Shown piece by piece: positions 1 to 18,918 of a DNA stretch of 64,000 bases (position 1 is the first letter of the stretch; every line of letters begins with the position of its first letter). Position numbers and translations under genes: made by a program. The notes under the pieces are model-generated. The model saw only the letters and a program-made list of their open reading frames with translations, had not been told where the DNA came from and ran no database searches. This DNA is from Escherichia phage PHB12, in sequence record MK524178.1. One strand, written 5' to 3'.

Positions 1-1009
1 ATGTGTCAGTGAATTCTAATACAGCTTTTGTGTAAAGCGCAACTACTTCTTTCTTAGGAGTAGAGGAATCAATTTCTACACGCACAGTATCTGGGTCGTA
101 TTCAAATGTCGCATGAGGATAATCCTTAAAAACTAACTGGATTACAGGGACACCTTTAGAGATGGCTTCAATAGAACTATTCTCTACCGTACCTGTGTTA
201 GGACACGTATTAATAAGTGCTTTAGCTGTTTTAAGACGTTCCATGATTTCACTGTGTGGAGCATCAATAATAACAGGATATTTAGCTGGTGGTGCCCATT
301 TGCTTGGACAGTATCCTACACCATTTTCGCCTAGTGCTTTAATCGCTTCAAGAGCAACATCAGTACGACGCATTTTAGTGTCATAACGTTGTGCACTAAT
401 AATCAGATCAGTCGCCGGAAGAACTTCAGGTTTCTCATTCAAACAAATAACCGGATAATCTTCGGCTTCAAACAACGGATTTGCTCGCCAATAATCATAA
501 TCAATTTTGTCAGTCAGACCTGAAGTCATATAACAATATTTGCGTTCAAATTCACGGAAGGCTTTAGTAGGAGCATAACTCTTACCACCATTCTTATGAA
601 TTTGAATAGTCTGGTCCCAAATTTGAACAATGCCACGAGATACAGGTTCAAATGGTGTTGCCATAAAATTCTTATGAACTTTAGAGAGACCTGCGTCTTT
701 AATTGCCTGAACGGTTAGTTTAGTCGGTTCCATAGTAACAACAAAATCGTATTCATGGATGCCGGCTAGTTCAACAATCTTACGAGCCATAGTATAACTC
801 ATACCTAGACTGAATTTAGTCAGATGACCAACAGGATGGTGTGTAACTTTCCAGTCACCAAACGTGTCATTATCAAAACCGATATAATCAATATCAGCAC
901 CAATAGAAACTAAATATTTCAACACATTTAAATGTACTGCTTCAAGGCCACCTTGTACACGGTCAGGATTAAATGGGACTGCACGAGATGGGATAAACAT
1001 AACTTTCAT
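1..1009 (-). CDS. GT-B fold glycosyltransferase, N-terminal ~336 aa (C-terminus lies beyond window edge); candidate DNA sugar transferase
   Basis: Minus-strand translation from ATG at 1009..1007 gives MKVMFIPSRAVPFNPDRVQGGLEAVHLNVLKYLVSIGADIDYIGFD..., open to position 1; absent from ORF track because its stop is outside the window. N-terminus resembles GT1/GT4 and T4 alpha-glucosyltransferase (hydrophobic strand, then GG-x-E). Confidence 0.5.
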   Translation of the reverse strand, partial: MKVMFIPSRAVPFNPDRVQGGLEAVHLNVLKYLVSIGADIDYIGFDNDTFGDWKVTHHPVGHLTKFSLGMSYTMARKIVELAGIHEYDFVVTMEPTKLTVQAIKDAGLSKVHKNFMATPFEPVSRGIVQIWDQTIQIHKNGGKSYAPTKAFREFERKYCYMTSGLTDKIDYDYWRANPLFEAEDYPVICLNEKPEVLPATDLIISAQRYDTKMRRTDVALEAIKALGENGVGYCPSKWAPPAKYPVIIDAPHSEIMERLKTAKALINTCPNTGTVENSSIEAISKGVPVIQLVFKDYPHATFEYDPDTVRVEIDSSTPKKEVVALYTKAVLEFTDT

Positions 1010-1034
1010 AATTAAGCCTTATTAAATTAAAATG

Positions 1035-1052
1035 AAGCTCCCGAAGGAGCTT
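1035..1052 (-). terminator. hairpin terminator after gene 39 (UUCG loop)
   Basis: AAGCTCC-cgaa-GGAGCTT on plus; U-rich tract follows on minus strand. Confidence 0.5.
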
Positions 1053-2868
1053 AGGACATCCATTCTTTACGAAGTTCTGAATCATCACCCAACAACATTT
1101 CAAAGAGTTCTTTCCAATTTTCAGGAAGTTTAACTACGTCGTACACAGGGTTTTGAATCATTTCACGATATTCTGACTTTTCAAGGGAGCCCAATCCCTT
1201 GATGTATCGAATACTATGCTTAGGCAGTGTATCTTTAGCTTCTTCATACTCAGCTACAGTATAAAACCATTTTTGAGTTTTGCCAATTTGTGCAATAATT
1301 ACAGGCGTTTTAACAAAGCGAATACGTCCTTGTTCAAACAATTCAGGCCAATTACTAAAGAAAGCAAGCAAAGCCGGATAAATACTTCCAAGACCGTCAT
1401 GATCGGCATCGGTCATAATTGCAATATTACGATAGTTCGTATTCTCTGCCTTTTCACCAAGAATAAGACCTGTGATAGCACAGATATCAAAGAGCTCTTT
1501 GTTCTTCATCATATCAGCATATGACATACCCCAGCTATTCATTACCTTACCACGTAATGGGAACCCGCCGTGTAGTTCACGGTCACGAACATCAATGAGA
1601 TAACCAATTGCCGAATCACCTTCTGTTAAAAACAATGTCGTATCTGCATCTTTACCACATTGGTTAGCTTTAATATGCTTATGAACCTTAGCTTTAGTTG
1701 CCTTTTTAGCTGCTTTAGTTTCTGCAGCCTTTTCTGCTGCCAATTTACGAGCTAATGCTGCTTCAACAATAGGCATAATCAAGGCTTCGTTTTTAAGAAG
1801 TGCCTGAGCAATTTTCTTAGTATCTAATTGGATATGATTACGAATATCACCATACGTTGACGTTAAACGTTCTTTAGTCTGAGAATCAAAACGCATGTTG
1901 CTCATGTCTCTAATAAACATCAACATTGTGAGACATTCTTTAACACGAGCTTTAGTGACTTCAATACCCTTATATTTCTTTTTAATACCAGGCAAAAGAT
2001 GTTCGCAGATATCATCCATTACACATTCAACGTGATGACCGCCATTTTTAGTATGGATGTTATTCACATAAGTTAAATGTCGGAAGCCATCTGGTGATGT
2101 TGTGAATGCTATAGAGACTTTATCATTTTCTTGAATGATGTTATCTTCGCCAAATTGTTTAGCAAATCGTTTAAAATTACCATCAACCTTTTTACCATTA
2201 AATGTGAACTTGATATCAGGATAAACGACTGCCAATGTTTGAAGTCGGTCTAAAGTAATATCTAAATAAATTTGAGATAAATTATGCTCTTCAAATGAAG
2301 AGAAATCAGGAGTGAAGATTACTTTAGTGCCTTTACCTTTAGATTTCTTAGAAGACCATGATTTGTTTTCCATTCCGTTTGAACAGTTAACAGTGATTTC
2401 ATTTTCGCCATCTGACGTGATGCCTGTAAACAACGTAGAGAAGATATTAGTTAAACTACTCCCGACGCCGTTCATACCACCAGTCTTACGTTCAGAGTCA
2501 TCGCCAAAGTTACCACCAGCCTTTGGAATAGTCCAGGCTGCTACAGGCCCAGGAATTTGTTCACCTGTTTGGTCGGTAACTAAACCTTGAGGAATACCAC
2601 GCCCGTTATCTTCCACCGAAACTTGATTATTTTTAATTTGCACATCAATTTTATTTGCAAACTTAAATGATGTACGAATAGCTTCATCAACCGAGTTGTC
2701 AATAATCTCATCGATTAATTTAACCAGACCAGGAACATATTCAACTTGTTGATATTTACCAAACAAAAAACGCTCGTGGGCTTCTTTGGCCGAAGAACCA
2801 ATATACATGCCACTACGTTTCTTAATATGTTCTACATCTGACAATACCTTAATTTCATTTTTAATCAT
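1051..2868 (-). CDS. 39: DNA topoisomerase II large (ATPase) subunit, fused 39+60 form
   Basis: 605 aa; N-terminus MIKNEIKVLSDVEHIKKRSGMYIGS and GHKL motif DNGRGIP match T4 gp39; length implies the region that is separate gene 60 in T4 is fused in. Confidence 0.9.
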   Translation of the reverse strand: MIKNEIKVLSDVEHIKKRSGMYIGSSAKEAHERFLFGKYQQVEYVPGLVKLIDEIIDNSVDEAIRTSFKFANKIDVQIKNNQVSVEDNGRGIPQGLVTDQTGEQIPGPVAAWTIPKAGGNFGDDSERKTGGMNGVGSSLTNIFSTLFTGITSDGENEITVNCSNGMENKSWSSKKSKGKGTKVIFTPDFSSFEEHNLSQIYLDITLDRLQTLAVVYPDIKFTFNGKKVDGNFKRFAKQFGEDNIIQENDKVSIAFTTSPDGFRHLTYVNNIHTKNGGHHVECVMDDICEHLLPGIKKKYKGIEVTKARVKECLTMLMFIRDMSNMRFDSQTKERLTSTYGDIRNHIQLDTKKIAQALLKNEALIMPIVEAALARKLAAEKAAETKAAKKATKAKVHKHIKANQCGKDADTTLFLTEGDSAIGYLIDVRDRELHGGFPLRGKVMNSWGMSYADMMKNKELFDICAITGLILGEKAENTNYRNIAIMTDADHDGLGSIYPALLAFFSNWPELFEQGRIRFVKTPVIIAQIGKTQKWFYTVAEYEEAKDTLPKHSIRYIKGLGSLEKSEYREMIQNPVYDVVKLPENWKELFEMLLGDDSELRKEWMS

Positions 2869-2933: not shown

Positions 2934-3357
2934 ATTTAAATTTAATTTTCTGAAGTGCATCAATTGCAGCCAAACGCCCTTGTTCACTTTTAACTGTAAT
3001 GACCACATCACCTGATACGATCACCGAACCATCAACAAATTCTACAGAGCCTTTTTTGAAATCGACAGATGTATCTGGTTCCGGAACTTCTTCAAAGAAT
3101 TTAAATTCTGCACCATAAAGCAGAATATCACCTTGCATACTATGAATAGTTCGGCCATAATCGCCTACGGCTTCTACGGCAATAACCGAAACGCCGTAAC
3201 CAATCATCTCTTCCACAATAAAATCTTTGGACAATAAAGTAGTATGCAGATTAGTATTAAGACGTTTACCAGTCGTATTAAGAATTCTCAAGAAATTATC
3301 TTCCTGTCCTTTGATAATACGATATTTCTTACCAACTTCAAAACCTTTAAAAGCCAT
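2932..3357 (-). CDS. hypothetical protein (39.1 position)
   Basis: 141-aa ORF directly upstream of gene 39, co-directional; no recognisable motif. Confidence 0.4.
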   Translation of the reverse strand: MAFKGFEVGKKYRIIKGQEDNFLRILNTTGKRLNTNLHTTLLSKDFIVEEMIGYGVSVIAVEAVGDYGRTIHSMQGDILLYGAEFKFFEEVPEPDTSVDFKKGSVEFVDGSVIVSGDVVITVKSEQGRLAAIDALQKIKFK

Positions 3358-4236: not shown

Positions 4237-4761
4237 TCATTTTAGCAAAATAAAATCAACTTGTTCTGCCAATGAACGTCTAAACATTAATTGACAACTT
4301 CCGAGGATGAAATCAGGTGCTTCATAGACCGCGATGTAGTATCCTTTAGCTTTCAAGAGTTCAACATCCACCTGGTCATCAAACCATGCATAAACCGCGT
4401 CAACACTTTCAAATCCAAAATAGAACCCTTGGGCCCAATCTTCACTCAATTCAAATGTGTGCTCAATTCTATAGTATCTTAAGATATTTTGTTCAAGGAG
4501 TTTGTCTTCATTTACTGTAGGACGATTAGGGACATTATAGTTGTCACCGTGATGGTAGAAGTTACCTGAGATTATTCCATGTTTATCAAGGAACTCCCAT
4601 GTTTCTTCAGAGTTGTCGGTGCCCGACCAACCGTATGGTGAACGAGGTTCTTTATTCCAAGAGGTTTCCCAAATTCTGACGGCTTTACCGTCTTCGATAG
4701 CAATTCCTGGTAATGATTCACGTTGAGTACAAAAACTACGTTCTACACGATAAACTAACAT
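4237..4761 (-). CDS. hypothetical protein (start moved to internal ATG after GAGGAG)
   Basis: Track ORF 4237..4818 begins upstream of the promoter; MLVYRVERSF at 4761 has RBS GAGGAG. Confidence 0.45.
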   Translation of the reverse strand: MLVYRVERSFCTQRESLPGIAIEDGKAVRIWETSWNKEPRSPYGWSGTDNSEETWEFLDKHGIISGNFYHHGDNYNVPNRPTVNEDKLLEQNILRYYRIEHTFELSEDWAQGFYFGFESVDAVYAWFDDQVDVELLKAKGYYIAVYEAPDFILGSCQLMFRRSLAEQVDFILLK

Positions 4762-4787
4762 ATTATTCTCCTCTGGTTGATATGGGT

Positions 4788-4816
4788 ATAATATCAAAAC
4801 CAGAGGAGAAGTAAAC
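4788..4816 (-). promoter_or_regulatory. early promoter (-35 GTTTAC, 17-bp spacer, -10 TATTAT) nested in 11-bp inverted repeat
   Basis: Minus strand GTTTAC-ttctcctctggttttga-TATTAT; arms 4768-4778 and 4798-4808, downstream arm carries the RBS GAGGAG. Confidence 0.55.
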
Positions 4817-4820
4817 AACT

Positions 4821-5240
4821 TTATGCGAAAGCAGCTGGGGTATATTTTTTAATTTGGAATTCAGGAACTACCATGAACTGACCAGCGAAAACGATGTTAT
4901 AAAGCTTAACACCATCTTCAACCCATTGGTCGCTGATAAATCCGGCGATTTGCTTAGTTTTCCACGGTGTTCCATCAGTTGCCGCAGCAATAGTGAATTC
5001 ATGGTCTTTTTCAACAGAAACTGATCTGCATAGTCCCCATTTGAACGCTTTTTCTTCTGGTTCAATGAATTGGCTTGAGACGTAGCCAATATTACCATTA
5101 GCATCACGAACTTTAACTTGGTTACGACCAAAAACCGGATCACTCACAGAAAGAACTTCAACCAACTTCCCGGCAACTTTAGAGCGAGAAGCAACAGATA
5201 CATATACGTAATCACCTGTAGAGAGATTTACAATATTCAT
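4821..5240 (-). CDS. hypothetical protein, member 1 of tandem paralogue family
   Basis: C-terminal FISDQWVEDGVKLYNIVF shared with the next two genes; N-terminal SVASRSKVAGKLVEV shared with 5250..5705. Confidence 0.5.
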   Translation of the reverse strand: MNIVNLSTGDYVYVSVASRSKVAGKLVEVLSVSDPVFGRNQVKVRDANGNIGYVSSQFIEPEEKAFKWGLCRSVSVEKDHEFTIAAATDGTPWKTKQIAGFISDQWVEDGVKLYNIVFAGQFMVVPEFQIKKYTPAAFA

Positions 5241-5249
5241 AATAATTCC

Positions 5250-5705
5250 TTAAGCTTTACGAGGAGACACATAGCGAGTGATTTCAGATTCTTTAACAAC
5301 TCGGAAGTCACCTAAGAATACGATATTGTATAACTTTTCACCATCTTCAACCCATTGGTCACTAATGAAGCCACACATAGTATCAGTTTTGCTTGGATAA
5401 CCGTATTCATCGATGAAGTCAAATTCTTTATCAGTCTGGAATTCAACGCCTTTGCAAAGGGCCCATTTGAACTGTACATTAGGTTCAGTGGAAGCAAAAT
5501 GAGCGCTCACAGGAGTTTCCAAGAATTTAGGACTTACGTAAGCGTACTGAGTATCCTGACGTCCAAAACTAGGAATGATTCGAACTTTAACTTCTTTAAT
5601 ACGTCCCATGCCATTTGTGCGAAGTCCGATAACTTCAACCAGACGACCTGCGGCTTTAGACCGGGATGCAATTGATACACGCTTAATTTCACCAATAGTA
5701 ATCAT
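5250..5705 (-). CDS. hypothetical protein, member 2 of tandem paralogue family
   Basis: GFISDQWVEDGEKLYNIVF and SIASRSKAAGRLVEV motifs. Confidence 0.5.
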   Translation of the reverse strand: MITIGEIKRVSIASRSKAAGRLVEVIGLRTNGMGRIKEVKVRIIPSFGRQDTQYAYVSPKFLETPVSAHFASTEPNVQFKWALCKGVEFQTDKEFDFIDEYGYPSKTDTMCGFISDQWVEDGEKLYNIVFLGDFRVVKESEITRYVSPRKA

Positions 5706-5734
5706 AATTTCTCTCTCTTTGTTAAATTGAATTC

Positions 5735-5764
5735 ACTATACTCCATCCGTCCTTGGATGTACAA
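5735..5764 (-). promoter_or_regulatory. early promoter-like (TTGTAC / TATAGT)
   Basis: Minus strand TTGTACAtccaaggacggatggagTATAGT upstream of 5250..5705. Confidence 0.4.
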
Positions 5765-5766
5765 CA

Positions 5767-6261
5767 TTAATTAAGGATATTAACCACAGCACTACGTGGA
5801 ACTACACTAAAATCACTTGAGTGAACAACGTTCAGAAGTTCAACACCGTCTTCAATCCATTGGTCAGTTACCCATCCATTTACTGGACCAGCGAATGGGC
5901 GTCGAATTGAAACATATTTACACAATAAATCAGTAGGCTCAATAGGCTTAATCAGAGTACCGTACATACAAGCGATATCCATATCAATACAGATGTCTTT
6001 AACGGGTTCTACTTCTTCAATCAACAGTTCAAAGTCGGTGCTTGGGATGGCAGTAGTAGAAATTGTACCGTATGAATTTTTAATTTCTAAGAATAACCAA
6101 GGGCCTTCAGCTTGTTTAATGAAGTTAACAATAGTGAAACTATTACCTTGAGTGGCACCTAAAATTTCACAAAACTTTTCATAAGCTCGCACTGAAGCAC
6201 CGTACCAGTTGATTTGTTTTTCGTCTTTCAGGATGTAAGTAGCCGTAGTATTGATATTCAT
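5767..6261 (-). CDS. hypothetical protein, member 3 of tandem paralogue family
   Basis: C-terminal GWVTDQWIEDGVELLNVV motif; own early promoter upstream. Confidence 0.5.
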   Translation of the reverse strand: MNINTTATYILKDEKQINWYGASVRAYEKFCEILGATQGNSFTIVNFIKQAEGPWLFLEIKNSYGTISTTAIPSTDFELLIEEVEPVKDICIDMDIACMYGTLIKPIEPTDLLCKYVSIRRPFAGPVNGWVTDQWIEDGVELLNVVHSSDFSVVPRSAVVNILN

Positions 6262-6292
6262 AATGTTTTTCCTGTTTGGTTAAGATAGAAAG

Positions 6293-6327: not shown

Positions 6328-7005
6328 TTATCGCTGTTTTACACTTAACGGGTCAGGATTCTCAGGGACATCTTCAAGGCCAAGCGCATAACGCTGAGCA
6401 TATTTTAACATCAAAATATCTTTAGCACAATCATGAATACTATCATGGGCAACGAATCCTTTTAACGTACCCATCGGTAATGGACACATACTTAATCCTC
6501 GTGTCAACGAGTAAGCTTCGATTGCCGTACGAATATCGCGTTGAGCCCAGAATTTAACTGGTTCTAAGTTATCAGTATCGATCTCTGGTTCAAGAACACC
6601 TTCATCACGATAGAGGTCACGAATCAAATCGACCAAGATCGGGAAGTCAAAGCTCATACCACGGCACCACATCTGTGATTTCCATTGGTCGACTTTATTA
6701 GCTCGGCAATAGTCTAAAAAGATTTTAATACCTTCAAGCGTAGTGACATCGTCTTCAGACGGAGCCAAGTTTTTACGTGCTTCAGCCGATTGTTCTTTCC
6801 ACCATTTCATAGTGGATTTAGCGAAAACTCGCTTCCCTTTCTGAGAAGCTAAATTAAATTTAATTCGCTTACCTCGTTGAACAAGTTCTTCAAATGATTC
6901 AACAACTTCAGGGTCGGAATTATATGCAATAACCGCAAGGTCAATAACAGCCGCTTTTGATGTATTGCCGAATGTTTCAAAATCTATAATAACATCAGTG
7001 CTCAT
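6328..7005 (-). CDS. dexA: exonuclease A (DEDDh 3'-5' exonuclease)
   Basis: 225 aa; DFETFG (Exo I) and HDSIHDCAKD (Exo III) motifs; sits immediately before dda as in T4. Confidence 0.75.
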   Translation of the reverse strand: MSTDVIIDFETFGNTSKAAVIDLAVIAYNSDPEVVESFEELVQRGKRIKFNLASQKGKRVFAKSTMKWWKEQSAEARKNLAPSEDDVTTLEGIKIFLDYCRANKVDQWKSQMWCRGMSFDFPILVDLIRDLYRDEGVLEPEIDTDNLEPVKFWAQRDIRTAIEAYSLTRGLSMCPLPMGTLKGFVAHDSIHDCAKDILMLKYAQRYALGLEDVPENPDPLSVKQR

Positions 7006-11315: not shown

Positions 11316-11516
11316 TCATTCACAGCTCCCTGAGCTTGAACCACAATCAGAATAACTTGACCCAGAATCACCAGGCCAAGACGATACGTATGAATGATTA
11401 TAACTTGAAGAGCTTGAAACATTAACCTGTTTTGTTTTTGGACGAACAACTTCTTCCATCATTCCATCACCGATATATTCCCAACTTTTTTCATGTGTAT
11501 CAGGAATAGGCATCAT
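11316..11516 (-). CDS. small protein with serine-rich C-terminus
   Basis: Internal start MMPIPDTHEK...; C-terminus SSSSSYNHSYVSSWPGDSGSSYSDCGSSSGSCE. Confidence 0.3.
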   Translation of the reverse strand: MMPIPDTHEKSWEYIGDGMMEEVVRPKTKQVNVSSSSSYNHSYVSSWPGDSGSSYSDCGSSSGSCE

Positions 11517-11529
11517 ACCTTCGCCTGGA

Positions 11530-11759
11530 TTAACAGCAAACAACTTCTTCAGTATCGTAAGCATTAATTGTTCCTCGAACAAAACGAACACCACCGTCAT
11601 CCCAGCGGATTTCGGCATTAAATTTGACGTCTTCACCGTCCATCATGAATGAGTGTACGACTACATCATCATAATATCCAAGACCGTATTTCAACGAAAC
11701 TTCTTGAGCAATTAAAGCACCTAATGTGTTATTAGGTTTAATCCAACGATTTAACATAT
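11530..11759 (-). CDS. hypothetical protein
   Basis: Start moved to MLNRWIKPNN after GAGGAG, downstream of promoter. Confidence 0.35.
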
Positions 11760-11860: not shown

Positions 11861-12097
11861 TTAACCACTTACTGGTGTAGGGGTAAACATTGCAGCATTC
11901 TTAGTTTTCCAAGTTGCTGCATCAGAAACTACAGTAGAATATGCTGCCTTTTCTGATGGAAAGATTTGGTAATGAGAATCTGCAATCCGATGTTCGTTTG
12001 AATAAATCTCAAACGGTACAGAAACTTCCATACCTTTAACTTCTTTACCTTCACCGGCAGGATGCGTAAAGGTTTTGATGTTTACATAACCACCCAT
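11861..12097 (-). CDS. soc: small outer capsid protein Soc
   Basis: 78 aa; GYVNIKTF...HYQIFPSEKAAYSTV matches T4 Soc; UUCG terminator directly downstream. Confidence 0.8.
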   Translation of the reverse strand: MGGYVNIKTFTHPAGEGKEVKGMEVSVPFEIYSNEHRIADSHYQIFPSEKAAYSTVVSDAATWKTKNAAMFTPTPVSG

Positions 12098-12142
12098 AAT
12101 TAACTCCTTTGTTGTTTAATTACAGGTGTATTTATAACTTAA

Positions 12143-12664
12143 TCAGTAACCATTATCCTGGCGTTCAAAGTTGTGTTGGTTTTTCAAGTAGTAAAGTTTA
12201 AAGATTTCTTCAGCGGAAAGACCCAGACCTTGGAACATATTCAGAACGAAATGCAGAATATCAATCATCTCGAATTTAATTTCAAGCTGGTCTTCAGGAG
12301 ACAGTTCATCGATACGACGATTTCGATATTCAGCATGTTGAGCTTTCCAAGGCTTCCATACAGAGCTAGCGGCTTTTTCACCATTGCTCATACCACCAAG
12401 TGAAGTCAGCAGTTCACGGAATTCATCATCAATATAATCTTTTTGATTACGCAGCCAATCAACAACATCGCCAGCAGTGGCCAATTCATCAGGATGTTTG
12501 TTATGTTCAGGCTTGTCATTTGCCAGACGAACCTGTAAAGATTTCTGCATATCAAGCATTACCTGCAGAGGGTCTTTATCTTCGTGAATCAGAGCATTAA
12601 AATAAGCTTCTTCTGCTTTATCAACACCAGAAATAAGTTGTGAACATTCGTTAAAGTGTGCCAT
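12143..12664 (-). CDS. 56: dCTP pyrophosphatase (MazG-like)
   Basis: MAHFNEC...DPLQVMLDMQ...LEIKFE..IDILHFVLNMF...FKLYYLKN..NF.RQDNGY matches T4 gp56. Confidence 0.85.
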   Translation of the reverse strand: MAHFNECSQLISGVDKAEEAYFNALIHEDKDPLQVMLDMQKSLQVRLANDKPEHNKHPDELATAGDVVDWLRNQKDYIDDEFRELLTSLGGMSNGEKAASSVWKPWKAQHAEYRNRRIDELSPEDQLEIKFEMIDILHFVLNMFQGLGLSAEEIFKLYYLKNQHNFERQDNGY

Positions 12665-12754
12665 TATTTTTCCTTTCAATTCAGTATAAGAGAAGTTAAT
12701 TCTAACATTAATTTTATAAAGCGTAATAAATAATAAGGTAACTAAGGAGATATT

Positions 12755-12952
12755 ATGTTTAAACTTCCATCGTTAATCAACGCTATTAAAGGCAATAAAA
12801 AGAAAACTGCTATCGCTGCAATAGTTGTAGGTGGCATTATTTCATGGAACTTCGGGATTGCACCATTGTTAGTTGCTAATGGTATTATAGTTCCTTCTGT
12901 TCCATTGGATACTGTAGTTGATTTGGCCTTTGCTATTATAGGGCTTGTTTAA
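12755..12952 (+). CDS. small hydrophobic membrane protein on plus strand
   Basis: 65 aa; RBS AAGGAG 6 nt before ATG; two hydrophobic helices; convergent with gene 61. Confidence 0.35.
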   Translation: MFKLPSLINAIKGNKKKTAIAAIVVGGIISWNFGIAPLLVANGIIVPSVPLDTVVDLAFAIIGLV

Positions 12953-13971
12953 ATCTTAGAATAACGAGATAATCTCATTTTAGCATGCAACCCACTTGAA
13001 ATATTCTGTTTCATATATTCTAAAATTTCTTGTGGTGTTGCATTTTCTTTCATTACCATATCATTCACATCCTTTGATCTCCATGGAGCTCGGTCCCAGA
13101 ACATAACACGTTCGCCTGCATCAACTAATCGCTTCATGCGAGCTATAGTATCCGGATGCCTAGGTTCATTATCCATTACCCATACCCGACGTTCTTTAAA
13201 TGGTGCCACATCTAAATCTATTGAGCCGCCTGTAATAGCGATTGCATTGGGTATGAATAAACTATCAATAGGGCCTTCCATTACCCAGACGTCTCCTTCC
13301 TTAACACGTTCAACACCATAAATTTTTGTTGCAGACTCAAACGCTTTAATAGTGATATATTTCTGAGGAGCATCTTTACGAAGTGCACGTCCTTGGAATG
13401 ACTCGGCCTTCCCGTCTTTATTAAAAATAGGAATCACTAAACGTGGTTCGGGAATCTCTTTCTTATACGTACCAGGTTGAATCTTGTTGACCAATTTAGG
13501 CCATTCTAATGTGAACCATAATCTGTTCCATGATTCTTTAGGAATGCATCGAGACTTAACATATTTCACAATAGGATGCTCTTCAGGCAGCTTGTCCAGA
13601 CGAGAACAAGACGGCAAAGAATTTATAGTCTTTTTCTCTGGCTCCGGCTTAGCTTCAGGAACCTTTTCAATCTTTGGTTCCATTCTAGCTTTTTCTTTAC
13701 GAACTTCCATTAGATACTCGCGATAAAGCTCTTCATCATACTCTTTTAAGTATCCGGAAATTGTATTGTGGTATTGACAATTATAGCAATGTACATTACC
13801 AGGAGTACCACCATAATACCATCCGCGGGCTTTCATTGCATCTGTCTGAGAGTCACCACAAACTGGACATCGAAATGTTAATTTAAACGTGCTTGAATTA
13901 TTGATTTGTCTAAAACGAGGTAGGTGAGAAAACGCACGATAAGCAAATTCATTATCTATCCATTCAGCCAT
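12949..13971 (-). CDS. 61: DNA primase
   Basis: 340 aa; zinc motif CPVCGDS...CYNC; strong match to T4 gp61 N- and C-termini. Confidence 0.9.
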   Translation of the reverse strand: MAEWIDNEFAYRAFSHLPRFRQINNSSTFKLTFRCPVCGDSQTDAMKARGWYYGGTPGNVHCYNCQYHNTISGYLKEYDEELYREYLMEVRKEKARMEPKIEKVPEAKPEPEKKTINSLPSCSRLDKLPEEHPIVKYVKSRCIPKESWNRLWFTLEWPKLVNKIQPGTYKKEIPEPRLVIPIFNKDGKAESFQGRALRKDAPQKYITIKAFESATKIYGVERVKEGDVWVMEGPIDSLFIPNAIAITGGSIDLDVAPFKERRVWVMDNEPRHPDTIARMKRLVDAGERVMFWDRAPWRSKDVNDMVMKENATPQEILEYMKQNISSGLHAKMRLSRYSKI

Positions 13972-14010
13972 AGTATTCTCCAGAGGCCTTAAATTAATAA
14001 GGCCATCATA

Positions 14011-17475: not shown

Positions 17476-18918
17476 TTAAAATTTTAACTCATTGGCTAAG
17501 CTATCTAGGTCAGCACGTGTTGTTTTGGCTTTACCTACGCGTTCCGTACGATTCACCTCTGCCTGACGCATCTGAGCACCTGCGTTTTCATTTACTGTGT
17601 TAGGTGTGTTCATGCCTTCTTGCTCAATCTCAATCCATTTCTGGTTGCCTTTACGTACACCCATCAGGAATTTATTCCACTTATTCTTATCACCATATCG
17701 TGATTTGATTTGTTTGATAAGTTGTTGTTCAGCTTGTGCAAGTTCTTCGGTTTCAATTACGGCCAACATGAAATCTGCCGTTGCTGGTAAACCTGCTGAT
17801 TCTGCAATATCGCGCATGTTCATATCCGAAGCATCCCATGCTGCACGTCCTACTTGAGCTGCAGTCCATAGAACTGTTTCAGATTCTACTGCTAATGCAC
17901 GAAGTTCTTCTGCGATAGCTTTAACTAATGTGTAGCTATTTTCAGTGTAAACTCTGATACGACAAGACCCACAAATACCTAAGTAATCAACCATGATTAC
18001 AGATGGCACAAAGTTCTTCTTAAGTTTTAACTCATTAAGCAATGCACGGAATGTATTAGCATTAGCTCCGCCAGTAGGATACTGTTTAACTACTAAACGT
18101 CCTAATGTGGATTTTGAACGCCATTTTTCCATCTTGGCTTTATATTCAGCATAAGATACGTTACCATCATCAATATCATCAAGTGATACGTCAAGCATGT
18201 TTGCATCTATACGCTTAGCGCAAACTTCTTCAGCCATTTCCATGGAAATATAAAGAACATTATGACCTGTTTGAAGATAATCTGCAGCAAGTGAACAAAG
18301 GCCTAAAGATTTACCAACGTTAACACCGGCCATTAAAACATTCAGTGTACCGGTTTCAGCACCACCTTTAGTGATTTTATTCAGAATGTTTAATTTGAAC
18401 GGGACCTTACGTGCTTTGTTCAGATAAGAAAGCCAGCGTGCTTCATAGTCTTCCATCCAGTCATGCCCAACATAACTATCAAACGAAATTGAAAGTGCTT
18501 GACGCATAATATCAGGAATAGCTCCTACGTCAGGCATTTTCTTGTTACGTTGTTCTGGAGGTAGTTCAGCATTAGATTGAATCTCAATGATTTTAGATGT
18601 AGCATTATACATCGCTTTTTGCTGGACATATTTCTCAGTTTCTTTAACCAACCATTCGTGGTCTTCAGGAGTATCAGCCAATTTTTCAATTAGGTCTGAA
18701 GTTCCTTTATATTCGGCTTCAGTTAAAGAACTGTTATCTAAAGCCACCTTTAACGCATTGATAGATGGCATTGCATTATATTCGTTAACGTGGCTCTTTA
18801 TAATTTTAAAGACGTTTTTTGCCGGTCCACGCTCAAAATACTCAGAATCCATATAAGGCCAGACCTTAGAAAAATAAGCCTGGTCATATACTAGATGAGA
18901 CAAAATAATTTCTACCAC
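17476..18918 (-). CDS. 41: replicative DNA helicase (DnaB-like)
   Basis: 480 aa; Walker A GVNVGKS and RecA-like core; T4 gp41-like. Confidence 0.9.
   Translation of the reverse strand: MVEIILSHLVYDQAYFSKVWPYMDSEYFERGPAKNVFKIIKSHVNEYNAMPSINALKVALDNSSLTEAEYKGTSDLIEKLADTPEDHEWLVKETEKYVQQKAMYNATSKIIEIQSNAELPPEQRNKKMPDVGAIPDIMRQALSISFDSYVGHDWMEDYEARWLSYLNKARKVPFKLNILNKITKGGAETGTLNVLMAGVNVGKSLGLCSLAADYLQTGHNVLYISMEMAEEVCAKRIDANMLDVSLDDIDDGNVSYAEYKAKMEKWRSKSTLGRLVVKQYPTGGANANTFRALLNELKLKKNFVPSVIMVDYLGICGSCRIRVYTENSYTLVKAIAEELRALAVESETVLWTAAQVGRAAWDASDMNMRDIAESAGLPATADFMLAVIETEELAQAEQQLIKQIKSRYGDKNKWNKFLMGVRKGNQKWIEIEQEGMNTPNTVNENAGAQMRQAEVNRTERVGKAKTTRADLDSLANELKF

Follow-up and report, generated by a model that had tools for sequence, protein, structure and literature searches.

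A small, probably late-expressed membrane protein gene of T-even phages with a likely relationship to the membrane core of PF11351 holins

The 64,000-nt stretch of Escherichia phage PHB12 analysed here (MK524178.1; hereafter the window, within which all positions are counted) carries on its plus strand, at 12755..12952, an open reading frame (ORF) of 65 amino acids (aa) that runs against the genes around it. We propose that this ORF is a real late gene of T-even phages, that its product is a small membrane protein related to the core of the PF11351 holins, and that it acts as a dispensable accessory of the cell envelope or of lysis. This is the explanation that best accounts for the observations taken together, and we put its probability at about 0.6; its parts differ in strength and are graded below, where the evidence for each is given.

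It is close to certain that the ORF is a real T-even phage gene that encodes a protein. A previous sequence-only reading had described a 65-aa plus-strand ORF with AAGGAG 6 nt before its ATG, opposed to the general gene direction and converging on gene 61 with overlapping stops, and had weighed a real small membrane protein against an antisense artefact, to be told apart by, among other things, conservation of the frame in relatives. The layout is as it was described: the frame extends from ATG 12755 to TAA 12950-12952; a Shine-Dalgarno (SD) sequence, AAGGAG, is found at 12744..12749 (+), with a spacer of 5 nt (atatt) to the ATG (5-6 nt, by way of counting); the genuine neighbouring genes are all on the minus strand; and the stop codons of the ORF and of gene 61 both fall in a TTAA palindrome at 12949..12952, the stop of gene 61 being the complement of TTA 12949-12951. 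Because the length of the ORF is by itself within chance for such AT-rich DNA, the case for it rests on conservation; several ORFs of 60-98 aa that lie antisense to real genes in the window are apparently spurious.

Conservation of the frame is indeed what was found. A tblastn search with the ORF returned 692 phage records, 685 of which span at least 80% of the query in one frame, and a second query, the version of Salmonella phage S16, added 165 further records, mostly of Klebsiella phages. In six genera the slot from gene 56 or dam to the 3' end of gene 61 holds a plus-strand ORF of 63-69 aa: Mosigvirus (RB69, HX01), Tequatrovirus (T4 and its relatives), Gaprivervirus (CJ20), Moonvirus (Merlin), Gelderlandvirus (S16) and Jiaodavirus (KPV15). 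Copies from these six genera match PHROG 2024 with E values of ~1e-24 to 1e-31; the ORF of the window itself matches phrog_2024 at E 1.4e-26, residues 1-65 falling on profile positions 1-65 of 65, and is annotated as RB69ORF029w (NP_861719) in RB69 and as gp163 in HX01. Amino-acid identity falls to 27-52% across the six genera, yet length, start, SD sequence and hydrophobic pattern are all kept, and AGGAG or AGGAGG stands at the same place before the ATG in all ten genomes compared. The ratio of non-synonymous to synonymous substitution rates (dN/dS, Nei-Gojobori) is 0.09-0.15 within genera and 0.11-0.43 between them, and the ORFs of the window and of T4 differ at 32 first, 12 second and 41 third codon positions. 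The minus strand beneath the ORF holds no gene, the longest ORF there being 31 aa. Given that no gene lies opposite and that the frame is under purifying selection, an antisense artefact is ruled out; the kept frame, the synteny across six genera and the low within-genus dN/dS all support a real small membrane protein.

Broken copies are limited to two laboratory derivatives of T4: T4_ev240 (LR597657) has a frameshifting deletion of 1 nt in an A-run (AAGAAA), and the engineered T4_583L (MZ375356) has a frameshifting deletion of 2 nt in TTTTACTATTT and also misses 4 nt beside the SD sequence. When 1.84 billion cluster representatives were searched exhaustively with HMMER, two clusters only matched, both T-even, so that the family in its T-even form appears restricted to T-even phages and the T-even profile by itself leads to no distant relatives. 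Nearly all homologues are named "hypothetical" or "uncharacterized"; two carry a "membrane protein" label and one, from a Tequatrovirus in UniProt, the label "Holin". Conservation, in at least six genera, of a late-strand gene within an early replication block implies a selected function.

The sequence-only reading had also predicted two hydrophobic helices, which hydropathy and structure prediction show to be essentially right, with the qualification that the second is short. The N-terminus is basic (K3, K12, K15-17) and residues ~18-65 are hydrophobic, with a break rich in Gly and Pro; AlphaFold, run on a 24-sequence alignment, places helices at residues 4-11, 15-41 and 51-62 (mean predicted local distance difference test score, pLDDT, 85). 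Residues 15-41 (12797..12877, +) form a predicted long transmembrane helix that contains the invariant W31-N32 and P37. It is followed by a conserved Gly/Pro turn at residues 42-50 (12878..12904, +; G43, P47, P50), non-helical in the model, which leads into L51-D52, and by a short C-terminal hydrophobic helix at residues 51-62 (12905..12940, +) that carries the acidic residues D52 and D56 and is below the length of a standard membrane span. W31, N32, P37, G43, P47 and G63 are invariant in an alignment of ten sequences from the six genera. The protein of the window ends in G63-L-V, and the T-even proteins end in GLV or GLI. The positive-inside rule predicts a cytoplasmic N-terminus.

The upstream sequence suggests when the gene is expressed. 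A box resembling a T4 late promoter, AATAAATA (consensus TATAAATA, with A at -13), lies at 12725..12732 (+) and ends 22 nt before the ATG. A T4 late promoter is an 8-bp TATAAATA box that lies about one helical turn before the transcription start; of the 50 T4 late promoters listed, 9 have the A(-13) variant (PMC2988020). Late units of this kind depend on gp55, gp33 and gp45 and are recognised by such a box, some 10 bp ahead of the start, in place of a -35 element. The box before the small ORF is thus of the TATAAATA type, as an A(-13) variant with the core TAAATA conserved, and from its position a transcription start is predicted near 12738. In all ten genomes, drawn from the six genera, the last base of the TAAATA core lies 12-22 nt ahead of the ATG, while the flanks diverge: the box reads AATAAATA in Mosigvirus (the window), GATAAATA or AATAAATA in Tequatrovirus (T4 has GATAAATA), CATAAATA in both Gaprivervirus and Jiaodavirus, and ATTAAATA in both Moonvirus and Gelderlandvirus. 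ATAAATA occurs three times on the plus strand of the 64-kb window, and only the copy within the 12725..12732 box is then followed by an SD sequence and an ATG. As a sanity check, the late gene soc (11861..12097, -) has a perfect TATAAATA at 12129-12136 (-), 31 nt upstream of its start; this is one of five perfect TATAAATA boxes in the window, all of which are on the minus strand. Expression of the small gene late in infection, from this predicted box, is therefore a likely outcome of the sequence comparison.

The possible link to holins came through a family of prophage proteins. A degenerate-pattern scan of viral contigs led to a 92-aa protein of a Yersinia rohdei prophage (P0009), which matches PHROG 2024 at E 7.7e-13 (a second prophage protein does so at 9.7e-11) and also matches PF11351, GTA_holin_3TM, with 24.8 bits, exactly at the gathering score, and E 3.3e-5. 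It belongs to a widespread prophage family of ~96 aa, with members in E. coli, Klebsiella, Serratia, Pectobacterium and Yersinia (P0047, for example, is from E. coli/Klebsiella); all 18 members scanned match PF11351 at E<=1, P0009 being the one that reaches the gathering score. In a MAFFT alignment both ends of the T-even proteins align to this 96-aa family and a hydrophilic middle segment of ~36 aa is extra in the prophage form, so that the T-even form looks like the 96-aa form minus that segment. The comparison with PF11351 was made against nine phage holins, one of which, used as the query, scores 84.9 bits against the Pfam model, the other eight being its tblastn matches and not individually scanned; several of the nine genes adjoin a gene for an endolysin or another cell-wall enzyme. 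We take PF11351 to be TCDB family 1.E.54. Its name comes from the release holin of RcGTA, in which the endolysin-holin locus rcc00555-rcc00556 is required for lysis and release (PMC5026251).

Profile-profile comparison with hhalign links the T-even proteins to the prophage family with a probability of 98.2% (E 6.4e-14, score 72.1), the prophage family to the PF11351 holins with 96.8% (E 3e-10, score 61.2), and the T-even proteins directly to the PF11351 holins with 82.9% (E 9.3e-6, score 34.3). In the direct alignment T-even residues 21-64 fall on the TM2-loop-TM3 region of PF11351 (its second and third transmembrane segments), in the same register as along the two-step path through the prophage family; the long helix lies against TM2 and the short C-terminal helix against TM3. 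Controls for composition all scored lower: reversed templates gave 13-16, and when the hydrophobic columns of the T-even alignment were shuffled 200 times the best scores were 20.4 with the holins and 26.3 with the prophage family. A pattern G...P..P[LI]D is common to the T-even protein, the 96-aa family and PF11351. These comparisons argue strongly for homology between the T-even hairpin and the membrane core at the C-terminus of the 96-aa prophage proteins, and they make it quite probable, with somewhat less assurance, that the homology extends to the holin core, TM2-TM3 of PF11351.

Other searches delimit this relationship. The T-even protein does not attain the PF11351 gathering threshold of 24.8 bits; Pfam scans of the Merlin, S16 and KPV15 proteins returned no family; nothing was detected in a comparison with a single PF11351 member sequence; and a word-indexed search with the merged alignment reached the 96-aa family only, without PF11351 members. 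A fold search in BFVD returned mainly members of the protein's own family and was uninformative for a 65-aa hairpin, save for one "Holin" label. On present sequence evidence we would describe the protein as a minimised relative of the PF11351 membrane core, and as neither a PF11351 member nor a holin.

The surroundings of the prophage relatives are conserved. The 96-aa gene closes a block of four, in which a gene for a GIY-YIG-like protein of 149 aa comes first and genes for proteins of 189 aa and 103 aa follow; neither of these two proteins matched a PHROG family in the scan, and neither has a recorded Pfam match. In the three stretches examined the block spans 4670..6291, 4681..6291 and 949..2614. 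In prophages it follows tail-tip protein J, a holin-like DUF2730 protein and lysozyme. One Klebsiella genome has the block with no tail or lysis genes around it; its neighbours there are a KAP NTPase and an EcoRII-type restriction-modification pair.

Combining these elements, we propose the following scenario. The gp55-RNA polymerase would transcribe the gene late, in the direction opposed to that of the early and middle genes around it, and in the window and in T4 the late transcript would continue antisense into gene 61. The 65-aa product would be an inner-membrane protein whose lysine-rich N-terminus stays in the cytoplasm; a single full transmembrane helix would be followed by a tight Gly/Pro turn on the periplasmic side and by a short second hydrophobic helix with conserved acidic residues. 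The T-even version would be a minimised one, from which the hydrophilic linker, the GWRP motif and the charged C-terminal tail have disappeared. With low confidence, we suggest that late in infection the protein forms oligomers or binds partners in the inner membrane, and, with similarly low confidence, that it is a dispensable (non-essential) accessory of the envelope or of the lysis programme. Because T4 needs gene t to lyse, the protein would be such an accessory rather than the holin itself.

A number of observations weigh against this reading. As to expression, the box departs from the consensus at -13 (A in the window, G in T4, C in Gaprivervirus and Jiaodavirus) and differs again, as ATTAAATA, in Moonvirus and Gelderlandvirus; searches for published T4 start-site and late-promoter maps turned up none that covers the small ORF; and searches of the literature for RB69ORF029w and for T4 ribosome profiling, proteomics and unannotated ORFs yielded no record of this ORF. 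As to homology, the direct link between the T-even proteins and PF11351 has a probability of only 83%, and Pfam scans of the window and T4 proteins at E<=10 gave no match. The T-even protein is about half as long as PF11351 proteins, without TM1 (and so without a third transmembrane segment) and without the hydrophilic linker; it also lacks the GWRP motif before TM2 and the LRxxEKxKG tail, both present in all or nearly all of the nine holins, and carries KKKT or KKRI in place of GWRP. A link to TeaA, the holin of phage ICP1, was considered and rejected, as ICP1 ORF135-139 gave no PF11351 match with HMMER and hhalign found nothing between the prophage family and ORF137; TeaA itself has been assigned to PF11351 by remote homology and collapses the proton-motive force (PMC7182436). 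As to function, the neighbours in the window are dCTPase and primase genes, with no endolysin gene adjoining and the lysis genes far away, and the frameshifts of T4_ev240 and T4_583L mean either that the small gene is dispensable in culture or that these are sequencing errors. T4 gene t mutants do not lyse and keep metabolising; because T4 without gene t fails to lyse, the small protein is not a sufficient holin.

The alternative that best survives is a real small late membrane protein unrelated to lysis, which would modulate a host or phage membrane component (in transport, exclusion, counter-defence or membrane-bound assembly) and whose resemblance to PF11351 would be merely an old shared helical hairpin. 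We regard it as possible, though unlikely: the gene is remote from the lysis genes and beside replication genes, the small protein has none of the holin hallmarks, the 96-aa relative of the prophages is three unrelated genes away from the lysozyme gene, and the same four-gene block is also found away from phage tail and lysis genes, next to the KAP NTPase and restriction-modification pair; against these points, holins are the only functionally labelled families that the protein resembles, and no alternative partner or motif was found. Within our own proposal a lysis-related function is likewise less likely than not, and its most specific version, that T4 and most T-even phages have an overlooked late gene for a minimal holin-core protein that acts in lysis or lysis inhibition, for example by sensing or tuning membrane energisation and thereby the triggering of holin T, seems improbable as it stands.

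A functional stand-alone holin or pinholin, which would depolarise or permeabilise the inner membrane late in infection, is very unlikely. The small size and hairpin topology are those of class II holins and pinholins, and the homology to the PF11351 holin core, the late-promoter-like box and the UniProt "Holin" label of one homologue would all fit; the textbook genetics of gene t speaks against it, however, as do the missing charged C-terminal tail, the lack of an adjacent endolysin gene, a score below the Pfam threshold and the apparent dispensability of the gene in laboratory T4 derivatives. It is scarcely credible that the ORF goes untranslated and owes its conservation to a regulatory role of the DNA or RNA (as the 3' end of gene 61, a promoter region of gene 56 or dam, or a late RNA antisense to gene 61). 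For this reading there is a sigma-70-like match on the minus strand in the 5' end of the ORF (12780 to 12752), and any plus-strand RNA would run antisense into gene 61, since Mosigvirus and T4 have no terminator behind the ORF. These points are outweighed by substitutions that follow the coding frame (dN/dS ~0.1, with the fewest changes at second codon positions), by length, start, SD sequence and hydrophobic pattern that persist at 27-52% identity over six genera, by the lack of any Rfam family and by a sigma-70-like match that shuffled sequence produces as often.

A late T-even membrane gene with a dispensable envelope or lysis role thus remains our preferred explanation, and its genomic setting can be described further. 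The window is from a Mosigvirus, an RB69-like T-even phage, and its bases 12100-14000 are ~98% identical to phages PTK, TU01 and HX01. The ORF fills the gap between gene 56 (dCTPase/dUTPase; 12143..12664, -; phrog_173, E 1.8e-45, and the HX01 and RB69 annotation), from which it diverges, and gene 61 (DNA primase; 12949..13971, -; phrog_47, E 1.2e-101, and annotation in relatives), with which it converges. T4, Merlin and S16 likewise have overlapping TTAA stops. The small ORF and gene 61 are set apart, without overlap of their stops, in Gaprivervirus CJ20 and Jiaodavirus KPV15. The sigma-70-like match mentioned above (TTGATT, 17 nt, CATAAT; 12752..12780, -) points to gene 56 and lies where an early or middle gene 56 promoter would be expected; it is no commoner than in shuffled sequence. 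Rfam gave no relevant family for the ORF region.

The T4 homologue is an intact 66-aa ORF at 17738..17938 (+) of NC_000866 / AF158101, inside the 310-bp gap between dam and gene 61, and is preceded by GATAAATA and AAAGGAGG. No coding sequence is annotated at 17738..17938 in either record, and the exact T4 66-aa sequence has no NCBI accession in the protein collection. In T4, dam is inserted between gene 56 and the small ORF, which is still attached to the 3' end of gene 61. The gene 56-61 neighbourhood is an insertion hot spot: T4 has dam and segF there, Shigella phage SSE1 (MK639187) has a homing endonuclease, and the small ORF keeps contact with the 3' end of gene 61 despite these insertions.

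How the late transcript ends may differ between genera. Terminator scans 3' of the ORF in the window, CJ20 and KPV15 reported none, although the simple scan missed a hairpin in CJ20 that direct folding revealed: in this Gaprivervirus a strong hairpin with a U-run follows the ORF (-23.2 kcal/mol, z -7.4). It has 19 bp, with an A-rich run on one side and the U-run on the other, lies between convergent genes (3253..3295 of the stretch examined) and looks like a bidirectional terminator. In KPV15 direct folding gave a weaker GC hairpin after the small ORF, and in the window and T4 it gave nothing like a terminator hairpin right behind the stop; because no hairpin follows the ORF there, the late transcript should run on antisense into gene 61 in these two phages.

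Some annotation observations were made in passing. The RefSeq record of HX01 (NC_018855) gives small early proteins implausible names, such as "molybdenum ABC transporter" (59 aa) and "iduronate sulfatase" (122 aa); in the HX01 stretch examined, the intervals with doubtful annotation are 898..1077, 3057..3134 and 6417..6785, and a 25-aa plus-strand coding sequence that overlaps the start of gene 56 looks like an over-prediction. In the window, a candidate 106-aa ORF at 11316..11636 (-), in the mrh-soc region, has a long Ser/Gly/Cys-rich tail (…SSSSSYNHSYVSSWPGDSGSSYSDCGSSSGSCE) and overlaps other candidate ORFs.

The gene was already known, having been listed as a hypothetical protein since the publication of the RB69 genome and grouped in PHROG 2024, so the find is a modest one. 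What the analysis adds is the missing T4 annotation, the conserved late-promoter-like box and the link to a holin family. In the T4 reference, the standard of the family, the copy has no annotation, and transcriptomic, proteomic or knock-down screens that build on this record would therefore have passed the gene over. It is also one of few late-strand genes embedded in the early block of replication genes, and its hairpin, as a probable stripped-down relative of a holin family, offers a concrete hypothesis that could be tested cheaply in T4. If a role in T4 lysis or lysis inhibition proved true, a missing player would have been found in one of the oldest phage model systems; if there were no phenotype, the gene would be an ordinary conserved small membrane protein.

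Comparison with known systems places the gene more precisely. With the PF11351 holins the protein shares, in the same order, an aromatic-[NQ]-[FY]xxxP motif, a G, then P..[LI]D and an L/I-G-L-G end. Its likeness to the 96-aa prophage family is broader, comprising the N-terminal MFxLxxLIxxIKxG...KK and the whole C-terminal hairpin (WN[FY]xxxP...G..LP..PL[DE]...G), whereas the ~36-aa hydrophilic segment (…QNxITLEETRKGFTWRQ…) is extra in the prophage proteins, whose genes also differ in ending a late operon, 1.4-2 kb from the genes for lysozyme and the holin-like DUF2730 protein. As a transcription unit, the gene resembles T4 late genes located within early regions, such as soc with its gp55-dependent TATAAATA promoter: it has a TAAATA-core box one helical turn upstream of the predicted start, a short leader, a strong SD sequence and an orientation independent of its early neighbours; it differs from them in that its box is a variant (AATAAATA in the window, GATAAATA in T4) and its start is a predicted one. 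Closest of all is RB69ORF029w and its family PHROG 2024, which the ORF of the window matches over the full length, with the same length, the same late-strand slot and the same invariant residues; nothing of substance separates them, and the ORF is a member of this family.

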